From: Candidatus Curtissbacteria bacterium
Lineage (GTDB): Bacteria > Patescibacteriota > Microgenomatia > Curtissbacterales > GWA2-41-24
DNA: 64,000 bases
Assembly (NCBI GenBank): GCA_016183325.1
Contig: JACPEV010000011.1
Location: 36,782 to 100,781, forward strand
Direction of reading: 5' to 3'
A program made the position numbers and the translations under genes. Positions 3,900-43,658 of the stretch are shown here, in pieces (positions within the stretch are counted from its first letter, which is position 1; each line of letters opens with the position of its first letter). The notes under the pieces were generated by a model. It was not told where the DNA came from. It searched no databases and saw only the letters and a list, made by a program, of their open reading frames with translations.

Positions 3900-4130
3900 A
3901 TTAAACGAATTATACCACTAAAATATGTAGTTTGTCGGACTAGTTTCAGCTTTATAAATTAATATTTCATTTCATGATCAAAAGTTGCTGGATTCCAGCG
4001 TTTTAGGATAGAATCTACCGGTGGGAGCAGCGATTCGACTGAGCTCATCGTCGAAGTCTTGCCCTGCGTACTGAGCGAAGCCGGAGTATCGAAGGGTTCA
4101 AGATTTCTCGCTCCTATTCGTCCGGGGAAG

Positions 4131-25255: not shown

Positions 25256-25338
25256 AGGTTGACAACTGACAACTGACCCTTCGATTCACTACGTTCGCTC
25301 AGGGCAAGCAATTGACTTTTATATAATGTCGATTAACA

Positions 25339-39803: not shown

Positions 39804-40760
39804 CTAATCAGTGAAGACCTGCGTGAACATTTTGCCGTAGACTCCCCCGTCGATAGCGCCGATGCCGATTTTTTTAAAGGCAGGGTCAAGAATGTTACGC
39901 TTGTGACCCTCGCTGTTCATTAACCCAATATGAGCGCGCGTGACATCCGGTGCCAAAGCAAGATTCTCACCAGCCATGGTAAAACCAATATTTGCCCCCT
40001 CTAGTCTATCTCCCACGTCTTTGCCTTCGGGAGAGTAGTGCGAAAAATACCCTTTTTCAAACATATCTTTGGAATGATTTCTGCCGACTTGAGCGCGAGC
40101 TTCGTCCCAAACTAGCGGCTGAACTCCGTACTTAATTCTTTCTTGATTAACAAGTTCCAGCATTTTCTGCTCGCCGGCGTAGTCTATGGTCAGTTGCCTT
40201 TGAGTAAACTCAAGAGGAATCGAGCCTTTTTCTTCGGGTTTAACTGTTAAAAAAGTCAGGCTTTGTTTGGCGATGGGCCCAAAAATGCTACTTATGGGTT
40301 TTTCGAGGACAGAAGCACTGCTGACTAATGCGGAGCCAAGTTGAGAGTCGAATATGTCCTTTTTAATGTCGGGCCTTATGGGAAGCGAGGCCACAAAAAG
40401 AAGAATAAAAGCTAAAAATAAAAGCGCGTTGATTGTGGCAGGAATAAATCCGAAATATTTATTGATGGTATTTTTGTTAACTAATTGTAAAAGTCGGCCG
40501 AAAAAACCATTAAAGATCGTAAAAAAGAGACTCTCTATGATGATCCAAACCAATAAAAATCCAATAGGATTTGCAATGATCTTTGGTAAGTTAAAATATT
40601 TCGTGAGTAGTTGTGCTGAAAATGGGTAAAGATTGAGTGAAGCGATAAGAGAAACCAAAAAGCCGATTATTTCGATGACTTGAGCAAAAAAACCACGTCT
40701 TAAGCCTTCTAGGGCAAATGTGATAACAACAAGGATAATTAAAAGATCAACCCAGTTCAT
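39804..40760 (-). CDS. CvpA-family membrane domain fused to a CAP/SCP (PR-1/YkwD-like) domain
   Basis: N-terminus MNWVDLLIILVVITFALEGLRRGFF (CvpA-like). C-terminus ...GRNHSKDMFEKGYFSHYSPEGKDVGDRL...GENLA...HIGLMNSEGHKRNIL (CAP domain). Confidence 0.65.
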   Translation of the reverse strand: MNWVDLLIILVVITFALEGLRRGFFAQVIEIIGFLVSLIASLNLYPFSAQLLTKYFNLPKIIANPIGFLLVWIIIESLFFTIFNGFFGRLLQLVNKNTINKYFGFIPATINALLFLAFILLFVASLPIRPDIKKDIFDSQLGSALVSSASVLEKPISSIFGPIAKQSLTFLTVKPEEKGSIPLEFTQRQLTIDYAGEQKMLELVNQERIKYGVQPLVWDEARAQVGRNHSKDMFEKGYFSHYSPEGKDVGDRLEGANIGFTMAGENLALAPDVTRAHIGLMNSEGHKRNILDPAFKKIGIGAIDGGVYGKMFTQVFTD

Positions 40761-40801
40761 ACATTAAATTATACCCAAAAAAATGAGAGAATTCTGAAGG
40801 G

Positions 40802-40818
40802 TGGCCCTACGGGGAGTC
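40802..40818 (-). repeat. 17-bp copy of the tRNA-Glu 3' end (GACTCCCCGTAGGGCCA), an att-like direct repeat
   Basis: Exact match to 41180-41196 inside the tRNA-Glu gene. The 361 bp between the two copies contain only a GIY-YIG gene. Confidence 0.8.
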
Positions 40819-40885
40819 TACACTTCGCTCGAAATAGTTTTTTCGAGCTTCGAGTAGTTTATATTCCCTTGAACCATATTCTTCC

Positions 40886-41143
40886 CTAAAGTTTCTTTAG
40901 AGATTTAAGAAAATGTTTATACATAAAAGCAACTCCTGATCCTGATTTTAAGTATTTTTCAAAACCCAAAGCGTCAGCTTTCTCAACGAACGAGGAATAG
41001 TGCACAAGTTTGTAATTCAGGTTAGATTTTGTCGACTGAACTTTACCTGATAGATGTCTTTGGATACGTTTTCTTAAATCTGGAGTGTAACCTATGTAAT
41101 ATCGATTTGTAATTTCGTTAAATAAAATGTAAACGTAATACAT
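40886..41143 (-). CDS. Small GIY-YIG nuclease, YhbQ/UPF0213-like (85 aa)
   Basis: YYVYILFNEITNRYYIGYTPDLRKRIQRHLSGK (GIY...YIG, R, H..G) and the downstream E/K-rich helix. Confidence 0.8.
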   Translation of the reverse strand: MYYVYILFNEITNRYYIGYTPDLRKRIQRHLSGKVQSTKSNLNYKLVHYSSFVEKADALGFEKYLKSGSGVAFMYKHFLKSLKKL

Positions 41144-41179
41144 TAGGGGTTTACTATCCGAAACTTTAGTGAAGGATAG

Positions 41180-41251
41180 TGGCCCTACGGGGAGTCGAAC
41201 CCCGCTTTGGACCTTGAAAGAGTCCCGTCCTAACCGATAGACGATAGGGCC
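41180..41251 (-). tRNA. tRNA-Glu (anticodon TTC)
   Basis: Reverse complement folds as GGCCCTA acceptor, anticodon stem GGACT/GGTCC, loop CTTTCAA, T-loop TTCGACT. Confidence 0.85.
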
Positions 41252-41333
41252 TCAATCGAGATAATAGTGAATAGAAAATGGAAAATAGTCTAGTCACCAA
41301 GACCAGGAAAAAAGCCTAGCAATTTTACCACAA

Positions 41334-42011
41334 TTACCCTTGCTTCTTAAACTTCTCGACTACTGTTTCAAGTAAGGACCGTGCCACAGTTTGTCCACCT
41401 AACCCAAATGCTAAGCCTCCCGCAATCGCGAGCATAGCCACAAGTCCTGCAAATAAAATCCGCAATAATTCCTGGGCAACTCCCAGTTGGTGTAGCACTA
41501 AAAAAGCTACGAAAACTGTCAGGGACCAACGAGCCACAAGAGCCACAACGTGGGCGGTATCCCTTCCCAGTGAGTGACTTGCGCTATAAGTAACTCTATA
41601 AGCGAGTTTTGAGAGTACTATGCCAATTACTGCCAAAATTACTGCAACAACAACATTGGGGATATAAAGTAGAACCCGCGCCAGAACTGTATTGACAGAA
41701 TCGAGACGCCACGCCTGGAAAGTAGGAATCAGGAAAATAATTATGATTGTCCAGCGTGTAATTTCTGCCAAAACATCAGTCCATTCAATTTCTCTGCCTT
41801 CTACCTTGACTATTCCGTACTTCTCCAGATACCTTTCTATCTTTAGAGTCTTGAGAATGCCAACTATGACTCTATAGGCAATGGCTCCAGCTGCTAAGCC
41901 TATTGAAAGAACAATCAGTCCCCCCAAAAGGGAAGGAATAAAATTAATAAAAGCAGCCAAAGAGTTAATCACCACAGAAGAAACTGCTGTCGTTAAATCT
42001 TCAACGCTCAT
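41334..42011 (-). CDS. Multi-pass membrane protein with conserved TM-helix repeats (MscS-N-terminal-like), visibly higher GC than its neighbours
   Basis: 225 aa with ≥5 TM segments and repeated L...AG...A motifs. Confidence 0.4.
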   Translation of the reverse strand: MSVEDLTTAVSSVVINSLAAFINFIPSLLGGLIVLSIGLAAGAIAYRVIVGILKTLKIERYLEKYGIVKVEGREIEWTDVLAEITRWTIIIIFLIPTFQAWRLDSVNTVLARVLLYIPNVVVAVILAVIGIVLSKLAYRVTYSASHSLGRDTAHVVALVARWSLTVFVAFLVLHQLGVAQELLRILFAGLVAMLAIAGGLAFGLGGQTVARSLLETVVEKFKKQG

Positions 42012-42065
42012 TTGATATCACCTCCTTTGCCCATAATCTGTATCTAATTTTAGTTTAGGGATAAT

Positions 42066-42092
42066 TGCCCCAAGAGTCAAAATCGTATATAA
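42066..42092 (+). promoter_or_regulatory. Candidate promoter TTGCCC-N17-TATAAT driving the pseudo-tRNA / GIY-YIG / tRNA-Lys cluster
   Basis: -10 at 42087-42092, ~15 nt upstream of the first tRNA-like element. Confidence 0.4.
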
Positions 42093-42106
42093 TTTAGATT
42101 CAAAAC

Positions 42107-42168
42107 GGGGGTATAGCTCAATTTAGTTAGATCCGGCGGTGCCGGACTTTGACGAGTGAACTCTAGTT
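42107..42168 (+). other. tRNA-like pseudo-element 1: a tRNA 5' half (GGGGGTATAGCTCAATTTAGTTAGA) with the D-stem/anticodon-stem replaced by hairpin TCCGGCGGTGCCGGA, followed by an anticodon-loop-like CTTTGAC
   Basis: Cannot fold as a cloverleaf. Shares the hairpin insertion with element 2. Confidence 0.45.
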
Positions 42169-42185
42169 TTTAGTTTTTGACAAAT

Positions 42186-42240
42186 GGCCCGCTAGCTCAA
42201 TGGTAGATCCGGCGAAGCCGGACTTTTAAGCGATTGGTTC
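42186..42240 (+). other. tRNA-like pseudo-element 2: a copy of tRNA-Lys nt 1-23 plus 34-52, with the central 8 nt replaced by hairpin TCCGGCGAAGCCGGA; it abuts the GIY-YIG start codon
   Basis: GGCCCGCTAGCTCAATGGTAGA-[hairpin]-CTTTTAAGCGATTGGTT matches the intact tRNA-Lys at 42489 except for the replaced core. Confidence 0.6.
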
Positions 42241-42498
42241 ATGTATACTGTCTACGTAATTAAAAGTGAATCGACGGGCAAAATATATATTGGTCAAACA
42301 GCAGTTAAAGTAACAAGATTAAAAAGGCACAATAAGGAGCTGCCTTATAATCCAAAAGGATTTACAGCAAAGAATGTAGGGCCGTGGAGAATTGTTTACG
42401 AAGAAACTTTTGAGACAAGAACAGAAGCATTAAAAAAAGAAAAATATTTAAAATCACACGTGGGACGCGATTACATCAGAAAAACATTGGCCCGCTAG
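42241..42498 (+). CDS. Small GIY-YIG nuclease, YhbQ/UPF0213-like (85 aa); its stop codon lies inside the 5' end of tRNA-Lys
   Basis: MYTVYVIKSESTGKIYIGQTAVKVTRLKRHN... The stop TAG comes from GGCCCGC-TAG-CTC of the tRNA. Confidence 0.8.
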   Translation: MYTVYVIKSESTGKIYIGQTAVKVTRLKRHNKELPYNPKGFTAKNVGPWRIVYEETFETRTEALKKEKYLKSHVGRDYIRKTLAR

Positions 42499-42560
42499 CT
42501 CAATGGTAGAGCAATCGCCTTTTAAGCGATTGGTTACAGGTTCGATCCCTGTGCGGGTCA
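42489..42560 (+). tRNA. tRNA-Lys (anticodon TTT)
   Basis: Acceptor GGCCCGC/GCGGGTC, anticodon stem ATCGC/GCGAT, loop CTTTTAA, T-loop TTCGATC. Confidence 0.85.
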
Positions 42561-42572
42561 CTCTTCGACTCG

Positions 42573-42594
42573 CCCTGAGAGTAATCGAAGGGCT
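42573..42594 (+). repeat. 22-bp hairpin-containing direct repeat CCCTGAGAGTAATCGAAGGGCT, upstream flank of the third GIY-YIG gene
   Basis: Counterpart CCCTGAGTTTATCGAAGGGCT at 42947-42967, immediately after the gene. Confidence 0.6.
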
Positions 42595-42661
42595 CGCTCA
42601 GAGTAAACTCGAGTTGAAGAACCCTGAGCGAATTATAATGTTGAGAGAATCGAAACATTAA

Positions 42662-42934
42662 ATGAGTCGAAGGGCTAATGTATCTTGGTACGTATATATA
42701 GCTAAAGCAAAAACTGGCAGATATTACACAGGTATAACCACAAGTCCAGATAAAAGAATTATTAAACATAACTCCGGGAAGGGTTTAAAGTTTGCCATAG
42801 AGCAAGGCCCATTTGAATTGGTCTATGTCTCAGAAGCATTTCCAAATAAGTCAGAAGCAAGAAAACGAGAAATTCAAATTAAAGGCTGGTCGAGAGAAAA
42901 GAAATTAAAACTAATAAGCGGCGAGTGGAAATAA
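42662..42934 (+). CDS. Small GIY-YIG nuclease, YhbQ/UPF0213-like (90 aa)
   Basis: WYVYIAKAKTGRYYTGITTSPDKRIIKHNSGKGLKFA...LVYVSEAFPNKSEARKREIQIKGWSREKK closely follows the YhbQ pattern. Confidence 0.8.
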   Translation: MSRRANVSWYVYIAKAKTGRYYTGITTSPDKRIIKHNSGKGLKFAIEQGPFELVYVSEAFPNKSEARKREIQIKGWSREKKLKLISGEWK

Positions 42935-43064
42935 AATTGAAGTTTACCCTGAGTTTATCGAAGGGCTGAAAGCGTTCCAGTACCCTTTGCCCCAACTATA
43001 TCTTTAACTTCGCTTTTTAACAAATCTATGTGTAAATGGAATTTTAGCCACAAAAGGCATATAA

Positions 43065-43658
43065 TTGCCGACTATGACTCCCGATTTGCGTCCTAGTGAT
43101 AACAACGAGGACGATAAACCAACTACGAGAGAAGAAATTGCTTTTGTGATTTTAACCTGGTTACAAGAAAGCCCTTCAGAGGTAGTTGAGGCAGCTGATT
43201 TGATGATGTGGGTTAGCGAAAATCATGCTCTGGTAAAGCTCCGTGATAGATTAAGAGATGCTTACTTAAAAGTGGATGGAGTAGAAGTAAGTGATTGGTT
43301 TACTCGTGGAGTTTCTGCAGCTTTTATGTATTTCCATGAAGTAGGTCAGGATATTGATAAAACGGACATACCTGTAATCACTCAAGGCACAATAGACTCA
43401 TTTAGATCAGATGCGGGAGAGAGTCGCAGGCAAAGGATGATTGCCTCAGAGTTTCTACTGGGAGATGAGTTAGCTGCAGAAAGATTACGGAGAGTAAATA
43501 AGATTTACGACCAAACGGATAAAAATCTACTGTTAATTTTAATGGAAACAAGGCTTAGGCCGGAAAATAAAGCAGTTTCGGAAAAAGCCCTAAGGGCTTT
43601 TCTGGAAGGTGGAATAATTGTGAATAATCTATTTGATAAGCAAGTACAATCTGCTTAG
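43065..43658 (+). CDS. Hypothetical protein (197 aa), GC-richer than its surroundings
   Basis: No domain recognised; predicted helical. Confidence 0.4.
   Translation: MPTMTPDLRPSDNNEDDKPTTREEIAFVILTWLQESPSEVVEAADLMMWVSENHALVKLRDRLRDAYLKVDGVEVSDWFTRGVSAAFMYFHEVGQDIDKTDIPVITQGTIDSFRSDAGESRRQRMIASEFLLGDELAAERLRRVNKIYDQTDKNLLLILMETRLRPENKAVSEKALRAFLEGGIIVNNLFDKQVQSA

Follow-up and report, generated by a model that had tools for sequence, protein, structure and literature searches.

A GIY-YIG nuclease gene and a hairpin-bearing partial tRNA copy as a probable gain/loss cassette at a tRNA-Lys gene of Candidatus Curtissbacteria

The tRNA-Lys locus of a Candidatus Curtissbacteria bacterium was analysed in a 64,000-nucleotide (nt) stretch of contig JACPEV010000011.1, referred to as the window; all coordinates are positions in it, and loci fetched from relatives carry L-numbers assigned within this analysis. 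The cassette at this locus is composed of two parts, an 85-amino-acid (aa) GIY-YIG nuclease gene (GIY2) and a 15–16-nt hairpin located in a partial copy of the tRNA gene. Direct repeats of tRNA sequence bound it, the 5′ copy disrupted by the hairpin lying at one end and the intact tRNA at the other. Since an intact, functional tRNA stands at one boundary, the host keeps its only tRNA-Lys. With moderate confidence, we read the region 42107–42560 as a small selfish cassette of nuclease and hairpin that is gained and lost in tRNA-Lys genes of the candidate phyla radiation (CPR) and duplicates a segment of the tRNA; the mechanism of its movement is one that we infer. Judged from its recurrence at tRNA genes of many ultra-small CPR bacteria and its absence from close relatives, the cassette behaves like a minimal mobile element and not like a one-off scar.

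The hairpin-bearing copy directly ahead of the gene (element B, 42186–42240) reads GGCCCGCTAGCTCAATGGTAGA / TCCGGCGAAGCCGGA / CTTTTAAGCGATTGGTT / C. Its left arm (42186–42207, plus strand) is an exact copy of tRNA-Lys nt 1–22; together with the preceding T, the 23 nt of 42185–42207 were 100% identical to 42488–42510 (repeat D3). The right arm (42223–42240, plus strand) consists of a copy of linear tRNA-Lys nt 31–47, covering the anticodon loop, the 3′ anticodon stem, and the variable loop, followed by one extra C (42240); the 17 nt of 42223–42239 were 100% identical to 42519–42535 (repeat D12). Between the arms, the perfect 15-nt hairpin TCCGGCGAAGCCGGA (HP-B, 42208–42222, unstranded; 6-bp stem and 3-nt loop) substitutes for the 8 nt GCAATCGC, which correspond to tRNA-Lys nt 23–30, that is, the 3′ D stem, nt 26, and the 5′ anticodon stem. 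By pattern match, covariation, and census, HP-B was assigned as a conserved cis element of the cassette. An earlier note on this DNA had already recognised the 5′ copy and the 15-nt hairpin in place of the central segment, and the repeat alignment brought only a small correction to the extent of the copied segments. In line with its statement that the copy cannot fold as a tRNA, neither ARAGORN nor Rfam RF00005 called a cloverleaf at 42107–42240, which includes a second hairpin-bearing fragment (element A), even at E ≤ 10. The ATG had been placed on the very next base after the copy, which was incorrect by the one intervening C.

The GIY2 gene (42241–42498, plus strand; Pfam PF01541, E = 8.5e-12) extends into the intact tRNA-Lys(UUU) gene (42489–42560, plus strand; ARAGORN; Rfam RF00005, 70.8 bits). 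As the earlier note had described, its stop codon TAG (42496–42498) is supplied by nt 8–10 of the tRNA, U8-A9-G10. The stretch between the tRNA repeats comprises 303 nt, and the open reading frame (ORF) occupies 258 of them. No Shine-Dalgarno sequence was found ahead of GIY2 or of GIY1, a paralogue beside the tRNA-Glu gene; the tRNA-derived arm runs directly up to the ATG of GIY2, and a short non-tRNA spacer precedes the ATG of GIY1. The same arrangement was observed on 7 contigs from several sequencing runs, so an assembly artefact was ruled out.

Three further candidates for the local anatomy were rejected. A group I intron has been described in a Patescibacteria tRNA gene (PMC13011429); at this locus an intron or a split tRNA was discarded because no Rfam intron family was detected in 40500–43500 at E ≤ 10, a complete tRNA lies downstream, and the ORF fills most of the stretch between the repeats. 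A P-nucleotide-like palindromic footprint of hairpin-ended breaks was dismissed, since the flanks, when inverted, do not yield the hairpin sequence. A single split gene, in which the upstream 5′ arm would pair with the downstream 3′ arm, holds in L011 and fails in L028, and is not general.

When the locus was compared with its Curtissbacteria relatives, four loci (L117–L120), anchored on the MscS-like neighbour gene (41334–42011), were syntenic through this gene and tRNA-Glu, and L118–L120 also had a nearby tRNA-Lys. No GIY-YIG gene was present in any of the four, including the position after tRNA-Glu; conserved target genes are thus polymorphic for the presence or absence of the nuclease gene. 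L120 has the promoter box of the window 12 nt ahead of a tRNA-Lys with 97% identity to the one in the window, and its locus contained no hairpin, no partial copy, and no GIY3, the third paralogue of the window; the tRNA-Glu of L120 is followed by unrelated sequence. By its sequence, the L120 tRNA-Lys locus is an empty site, of the kind that the earlier note had suggested seeking in relatives. Relative to it, the window carries 383 extra nt (42106–42488) in which the GIY-YIG ORF stands alone.

The cassette was then followed among homologous loci. A protein search gave 45 GIY2 homologues, and a homologue-independent pattern scan gave 9 further true loci, the other 7 matches being chance occurrences in GC-rich coding DNA; a further 80 loci came from scanning metagenomes with the protein alignment. 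The pattern-scan loci came from Daviesbacteria, Levyibacteriota, Microgenomates, Saccharimonadales, unclassified Patescibacteria, and 3 metagenome-assembled genomes labelled Gammaproteobacteria. Among 99 non-identical genes, a tRNA was located within 200 nt upstream or 60 nt downstream in 82, and about half of the remaining 17 lay at contig ends. Together with the mirrored cassette at tRNA-Glu in the window, this agrees with the earlier claim that these small nuclease genes target tRNA genes.

At 60–85% identity, every locus examined had a hairpin-bearing partial tRNA-Lys ahead of the ATG, and all of these ORFs stopped at the TAG of nt 8–10 of an intact tRNA-Lys (UUU or CUU). Over all loci, the stop began at tRNA nt 8 in 44 genes, with 23 at Lys(UUU), 16 at Lys(CUU), 4 at Asn, and 1 at Val, and genes in other reading frames ended at the next stop triplet of the tRNA, at nt 19–21 or 36–38. 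The ORF thus lacks its own stop codon and ends at whichever tRNA triplet its frame meets. In the 71 non-redundant genes with enough flank for layout, the upstream hairpin together with the run into an intact tRNA was present in 48 and a permuted order in 6. A hairpin was found within 120 nt upstream of 53 of the 71, a subset of which also had a downstream hairpin. In L065 and L089 the order was copy, intact tRNA, gene, and hairpin copy. Hairpin copies formed tandem arrays in L089 and L100, and in L094 the whole unit was present in partial tandem; the ORF of L100 ends inside a hairpin-bearing copy. In L006, L007, and L014, the partial copy and the adjacent intact gene belong to different tRNA-Lys lineages.

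A mirrored layout, composed of intact tRNA, spacer, gene, hairpin, and tRNA 3′ copy, was observed at tRNA-Asn (L083, L063, L079, and L049), at tRNA-Pro (L094), and at tRNA-Glu in the window. The hairpins of L049 and of the GIY1 cassette have other sequences, and in L104, at tRNA-Phe, the gene has a 3′ copy behind it but no evident hairpin. Either layout places the gene and hairpin between direct repeats of a tRNA segment, with the hairpin at or inside the partial repeat. The earlier note had regarded a conserved, expressed pseudo-tRNA lacking the nuclease gene as pointing to a function other than an insertion scar. This was found in part, as the pseudo-tRNA element is conserved in relatives and occasionally occurs without the gene, in element A of the window, in L089 and L100, and in L021, where the hairpin copy remains 25 nt from the tRNA and the gene is gone.

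Three variants of the hairpin insertion were also recorded. In distant relatives at tRNA-Asn(GUU) (L073, L085, L092, L093, L095, L096, L101, L103, L107, L109, and L111), a partial tRNA-Asn copy carries the same hairpin (TCCGCCAGCTGGCGGA) in its D loop instead of at nt 23–30, about 30–60 nt ahead of the gene. At ~2500–2590 of L089, a partial 5′ tRNA-Met/Ile-like copy carries a long, different hairpin, CCCGCCTCGCCGAGCTGAAGCTCGGCTTCAGCGAGGCGGG, in its D loop; it stands directly ahead of the intact tRNA, and no nuclease gene intervenes. A second insertion type, located in the anticodon loop of downstream tRNA-Lys copies and composed of GACG, a small GC hairpin, and TTTTTGCnnnGCAAAAA, is common to distant loci (L006 975–1015, L014 ~1240–1275, and window 42147–42185).

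The GIY2 protein matched PF01541 alone (residues 1–76 of 85; 45.7 bits with a cutoff of 22.6), and its paralogues GIY1 and GIY3, all three lying inside 2.1 kb, scored 53 and 65.8 bits, respectively. In 29 homologues, the catalytic-type residues Tyr5, Tyr16, Gly18, His30, and Glu67 were invariant, and Arg26 was present in at least 90%. The ratio of nonsynonymous to synonymous substitution rates (dN/dS) was 0.09 against L006 and 0.08–0.35 over pairs with estimable dS, and on these ratios the GIY2 protein is kept functional by purifying selection. The closest named or solved proteins were UPF0213/YazA-like (E = 2e-7 and 3e-6; YazA, 1.2e-13 against the clade profile). No GIY2 relatives were found in the plasmid collection at E ≤ 1e-3. 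The nonsynonymous divergence (pN) of GIY2 was 0.19 against a Saccharimonadales homologue and 0.26–0.30 against Daviesbacteria homologues (L022 vs L027 and L030). Daviesbacteria are the closer relatives of the host in CPR taxonomy, so the greater nearness of GIY2 to the Saccharimonadales homologue hints at horizontal transfer of the gene.

Classical double-strand homing, in which the nuclease would cut an unoccupied tRNA-Lys and repair from an occupied allele would copy the gene in, accounts for the presence/absence of the gene at a highly conserved target and for the specificity of the family for tRNA-Lys and tRNA-Asn. It has a precedent in phage T4 SegB, a GIY-YIG homing enzyme in a tRNA gene cluster (PMC2330249), and the SegB type resembles the present case as a presence/absence cassette with a GIY-YIG gene among tRNA genes. 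The hairpin would then do no more than abolish recognition of the leftover 5′ copy, or it would break homology against repeat-mediated deletion of the gene, and the latter role fits the uninterrupted identity tracts of only 22 and 17 nt. However, homing endonucleases of the I-TevI and SegB type are modular (~200–260 aa) with a C-terminal DNA-binding domain, and SegB-type enzymes cut double-stranded DNA of the empty allele without a cognate hairpin or tRNA duplication, whereas GIY2 is a catalytic domain alone, with no DNA-binding domain. The group I intron endonuclease model TIGR01453 reached only 13.9 bits on GIY2 (cutoff, 56), over residues 3–34 only. Moreover, an intact, cleavable tRNA-Lys persists in every occupied locus, and a site-disrupting mutation leaves unexplained why the same hairpin occurs at varied positions and in different tRNAs. 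Homing is therefore considered unlikely.

The hairpin itself has the signature of a selected element. Its consensus, TCCGSC-N3-4-GSCGGA, is a perfect, GC-rich palindromic arm pair of 15–16 nt. The exact pattern occurs twice in the 64 kb, both times at the tRNA-Lys locus, which is not expected by chance. In the window and fetched loci together (523 kb), 144 copies of the strict class were counted, compared with about 1 in shuffles, and nearly all were within tRNA-Lys or tRNA-Asn fragments beside the gene. Replacement of nt 23–30 is the usual site, but L040, L080, and the tRNA-Asn group have the hairpin in the D loop and L054 has it at nt 9; in L044, L040, L048, and L061 it occupies the T loop of copies lying downstream. 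The stem variants TCCGGC, TCCGCC, TCCGTC, TCAGGC, and CCCGCC were each accompanied by a matching 3′ arm. In 26 distinct segments, which were chosen by their flanks and not by palindromy, 98.1% of cells were paired, compared with 84.8% in shuffles, and three of the six stem pairs showed double changes (U-A/C-G; C-G/A-U; and G-C/C-G/U-A). The covariation score of 0.323 (against 0.076) was reached by 0 of 500 shuffles, and slid registers all gave less than 50% pairing. The hairpin class also followed protein similarity (0 of 2000 permutations as extreme), to which shared descent could contribute.

The covarying stem would also be expected if the element acted at the RNA level, with the pseudo-tRNA as a structured leader of the nuclease mRNA or of the tRNA precursor and the gene domesticated. 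Such a leader might stabilise the 5′ end, serve RNase P/Z or a tRNA-binding protein as a processing or decoy site, or act as an attenuator. The position of the element agrees with such roles, since it is always on the sense strand of gene and tRNA, 3′ of the tRNA promoter, and mostly just ahead of an ATG lacking a Shine-Dalgarno sequence. However, only 1 G-U pair was found in 156 cells, and the 4-nt loops were mostly AGCT, which makes a perfect 16-nt palindrome; both are expected for recognition of DNA and not for an RNA helix. Copies are also found after the tRNA, in T loops, and in tandem arrays, the whole elements did not fold with exceptional stability (z = −0.5 for B and −1.3 for A), and no Rfam match was obtained. 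An RNA-level role is accordingly judged quite improbable. With a nearly pure Watson–Crick stem and a palindrome, either DNA strand could fold, or the duplex palindrome could be read, and the pattern of substitutions favours selection on the hairpin at the DNA level over the RNA level.

A passive scar, in which a single insertion displaced the tRNA 5′ part and the hairpin is an incidental mutation, is compatible with the local anatomy by itself but is extremely unlikely. The element is conserved, with a hairpin that covaries across 26 or more distinct lineages, a second copy is present in the window, and a perfect 15-nt hairpin between 100%-identical arms is unlike sequence decay. Of the origin proposed in the earlier note, insertion at a tRNA gene with a partial copy and an intact tRNA thus stands, whereas the displaced, decaying original fragment does not, because the hairpin is conserved and covaries across CPR lineages.

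The second copy, element A (42107–42185), was missed by the earlier note. It is a hairpin-bearing tRNA-Lys-like fragment directly upstream of element B, without a nuclease gene of its own. Its left arm, GGGGGTATAGCTCAATTTAGTTAGA (42107–42131, plus strand; sequence and repeat analysis), is a 5′ segment of a GGGGGTA-type tRNA-Lys. A tRNA-Lys(UUU) of this type is the resident gene in L118 and L119, and the same type forms the left arm of the upstream copy in L006. The hairpin HP-A, TCCGGCGGTGCCGGA (42132–42146, unstranded; exact pattern match, repeat family D6), has a 6-bp stem and a 3-nt loop, and the block TAGATCCGGCGnnGCCGGACTTT is common to elements A and B (repeat D6). The right arm (42147–42185, plus strand) was assigned by homology to L006 and contains CTTTGACG, the small hairpin GAGTGAACTC, and T-rich runs.

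The L006 locus was syntenic with the window, with 75.6% nucleotide identity over the 5′ end of the MscS-like gene and a shared promoter box. It contains, in order, a GGGGGTA/CUU-type copy with a longer hairpin, the gene, a GGCCCGC-type tRNA-Lys that is the same type as in the window, and a hairpin-bearing copy. The end of this downstream copy is the 3′ half of a GGGGGTA/UUU-type gene, the tRNA-Lys resident in L118 and L119. The fragments of L006 derive from three tRNA-Lys lineages and are assembled differently than in the window. Positions 944–999 of L006, downstream of its tRNA-Lys, matched window 42114–42171 with 77.6% identity (blastn). Element A corresponds to the left arm of the L006 upstream copy, the hairpin, and the right arm of the L006 downstream copy, a composition expected from recombination between two hairpin copies, and on this comparison it looks like such a recombination product.

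Upstream of both elements, a putative sigma-70-like promoter (42065–42093, plus strand) was found with TTGCCC, a 17-nt spacer, and TATAAT (10 of 12 matches in the scan). Its cgtatataat box is kept in L006 and in L120. As far as its function can be read from the motif, this promoter would drive elements A and B, GIY2, and tRNA-Lys as a single transcript.

Among known systems, the closest by layout is Ssn/NTS, represented by SsnA of Neisseria meningitidis and its homologues (Chenal et al. 2025, PMC11893778). The Ssn proteins (cd10448) are single-domain GIY-YIG nucleases of ~94 aa that bind their cognate hairpin in single-stranded DNA (ssDNA) only and cut just upstream of it. GIY2, at 85 aa and with its one domain, fits the single-domain build of ~90–100 aa that marks this family. 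A hairpin repeat is located near 71% of Ssn genes, on both sides in 42%, and the authors likened the layout to an insertion sequence (PMC11893778). Neither tRNA nor Patescibacteria is mentioned in that paper. The two systems share a stand-alone GIY-YIG nuclease of ~85–95 aa, a cognate GC-rich hairpin repeat on one or both sides of the gene in the manner of a tiny insertion sequence, and hairpin variants that track protein variants. They differ in that the hairpins of the present family are 15–16-nt cores inside partial tRNA copies, in that the gene is fused to the tRNA gene, and in that the hairpins are not dispersed, with 2 per 64 kb.

Other systems were similar in part. Like tRNA-targeting integrative elements, the cassettes are inserted between direct repeats of a tRNA segment with the tRNA left intact (D3, D12, and D11), and the tRNA-Glu cassette has the classic intact tRNA with an 18-nt 3′ repeat. 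In contrast to those elements, the present ones have no integrase, an insert of ~0.3–0.4 kb, duplication of the 5′ part at tRNA-Lys, and a hairpin that marks the repeat; by ORF and Pfam content, no tyrosine or serine recombinase was found in the 383-nt insert. IS200/IS605 and REP-RAYT systems likewise have a small gene flanked by DNA hairpins as likely cis sites, with ssDNA chemistry suspected. However, their HUH (Y1) transposase can rejoin DNA, whereas here a GIY-YIG hydrolase stands alone, no HUH transposase being detected and GIY-YIG being the sole Pfam match, and the target is apparently chosen by tRNA homology. UPF0213 (B. subtilis YazA and E. coli YhbQ; PDB codes 1ywl and 1zg2) is nearest to GIY2 by sequence, but GIY2 lacks the GKGAKYT and KxLT/KGWSR motifs, and UPF0213 genes are housekeeping-like, are not fused to a tRNA, and have no hairpin-bearing tRNA copies.

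For the selfish cassette, a mechanism of movement may be proposed. By analogy with Ssn/NTS, GIY2 would bind its hairpin in ssDNA and nick the strand beside it, within the tRNA-homologous arm. Host recombination against a tRNA-Lys gene would repair the break, and the unit would thereby be inserted, excised, duplicated, or permuted. A circular or tandem intermediate of ~0.3–0.4 kb is possible, with a junction composed of the ORF end, tRNA nt 1–22, the hairpin, tRNA nt 31–47, and the ORF start. A crossover in the 1–22 segment of such a circle would give exactly the order of the window, and such a unit would explain why the ORF borrows the TAG of the tRNA. GIY2 would be co-transcribed with tRNA-Lys from the promoter at 42065–42093. 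Given the coordinates and what RNase P is known to do, the ORF would lose its stop codon once the enzyme cut at the tRNA 5′ end, so that full-length protein would be made from the unprocessed precursor only and the level of the nuclease would be kept low.

Several points weigh against this interpretation. The published Ssn-related motif (SRM), HGTCWYN(0-2)YYVSBRHN(0-5)WNVSBRGN(0-2)RNCYNB, had 0 matches in the window and 1 match, unrelated to the gene, in ~0.5 Mb of related loci. By sequence, GIY2 comes nearest to UPF0213/YazA-like reference proteins, and its resemblance to Ssn is one of layout; ssDNA cleavage by the GIY2 clade is a prediction by analogy. The hairpin is not dispersed through the genome like NTS repeats. 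Neither a circular junction nor, among contigs with an identical neighbouring gene, an empty allele within the population was found, and the presence/absence pattern in relatives could also reflect losses. Recombination would have only short identity tracts to work with. At most loci, the local tRNA is matched by the left and the right arm of the partial copy alike, so the simple single-crossover circle model needs later gene conversion. To our knowledge, a GIY-YIG nuclease, as a hydrolase, cannot religate DNA, and movement must therefore rely on host recombination.

The sole SRM match was an intergenic NTS-like repeat, CGTCATTCCCCGACTCGATCGGGGAATCCAG, at 943–973 of L047; the same region, which lies ~2 kb from a GIY2 relative, holds another inverted repeat at ~1000–1036.

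The two other GIY-YIG paralogues of the window are also located beside tRNA genes. The mirrored tRNA-Glu cassette (40801–41251, minus strand; repeats D11 and I9, Pfam, and ARAGORN) contains tRNA-Glu (41251–41180), GIY1 (41143–40886), a 40-nt hairpin (40857–40818), and an 18-nt copy of the tRNA-Glu 3′ end (40818–40801). Its hairpin is AT-rich and unlike the tRNA-Lys hairpin in sequence. The third cassette (42562–42967, plus strand; ORF, Pfam, and motif copies) is located 3′ of tRNA-Lys and contains GIY3 (42662–42934), a YhbQ/KGWSR-like protein of 90 aa. GIY3 is bracketed by CCCTGAG..ATCGAAGGG copies at 42573–42594 and 42947–42967, with no tRNA segment duplicated. No GIY3 cassette follows tRNA-Lys in L120. 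The motif CCCTGAG(CGAA)..ATCGAAGGG was also observed at 42619–42632 and in distant intergenic regions (4064–4096 and 25277–25305, minus strand), and TCGAAGGG occurred 8 times compared with 1.9 expected, with a stem of only 4 bp evident. The CCCTGAG(CGAA)..ATCGAAGGG motif may be the cognate repeat of GIY3.

A search of plasmids with GIY3 matched YhbQ/YazA/KGWSR-type genes. No SRM was found near the GIY3-matched loci, in 1-kb flanks of two Sphingomonas and one Acidiphilium loci and in 0.5-kb flanks of YazA and a Klebsiella YhbQ-like gene. A Neisseria match (N. gonorrhoeae, NZ_CP119140.1; L121/L122) was a YhbQ-like gene by glnA/aroE. It was rejected as ssnA on account of this context and because no NTS or dRS3 repeat was found within 16 kb. 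The record NZ_CP119140.1 is a 2.17-Mb chromosome filed as a plasmid in the plasmid collection.

The cassette connects two themes that have been described separately, the nuclease–hairpin pairs of Ssn/NTS reported in 2025 and the tRNA genes as landing sites, and the literature search gave no paper tying GIY-YIG genes to tRNA genes in CPR bacteria. It also explains a recurrent oddity of CPR annotation, in which a tRNA-overlapping ORF follows an undetectable pseudo-tRNA. Dozens of natural nuclease–hairpin pairs with simple, predictable targets become available for the study of DNA recognition. More tentatively, and as a possibility to be held with considerable doubt, these loci may represent an unrecognised class of minimal autonomous mobile elements of ~0.3–0.4 kb. 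Each would be made of a single-domain GIY-YIG single-strand nuclease and a 15–16-nt hairpin, and would move between tRNA genes (Lys, Asn, Glu, Pro, and Phe) by nuclease-nicked, homology-guided recombination via a circle or tandem, always regenerating the tRNA. If such a class exists, it would give Ssn-type nucleases and their hairpin repeats the natural role that they have been missing, namely selfish mobility. If the reading as a selfish cassette is right in itself, such cassettes would be among the smallest self-contained mobile units known in bacteria. They would target essential, universal tRNA genes without destroying them, in hosts with extremely reduced genomes.

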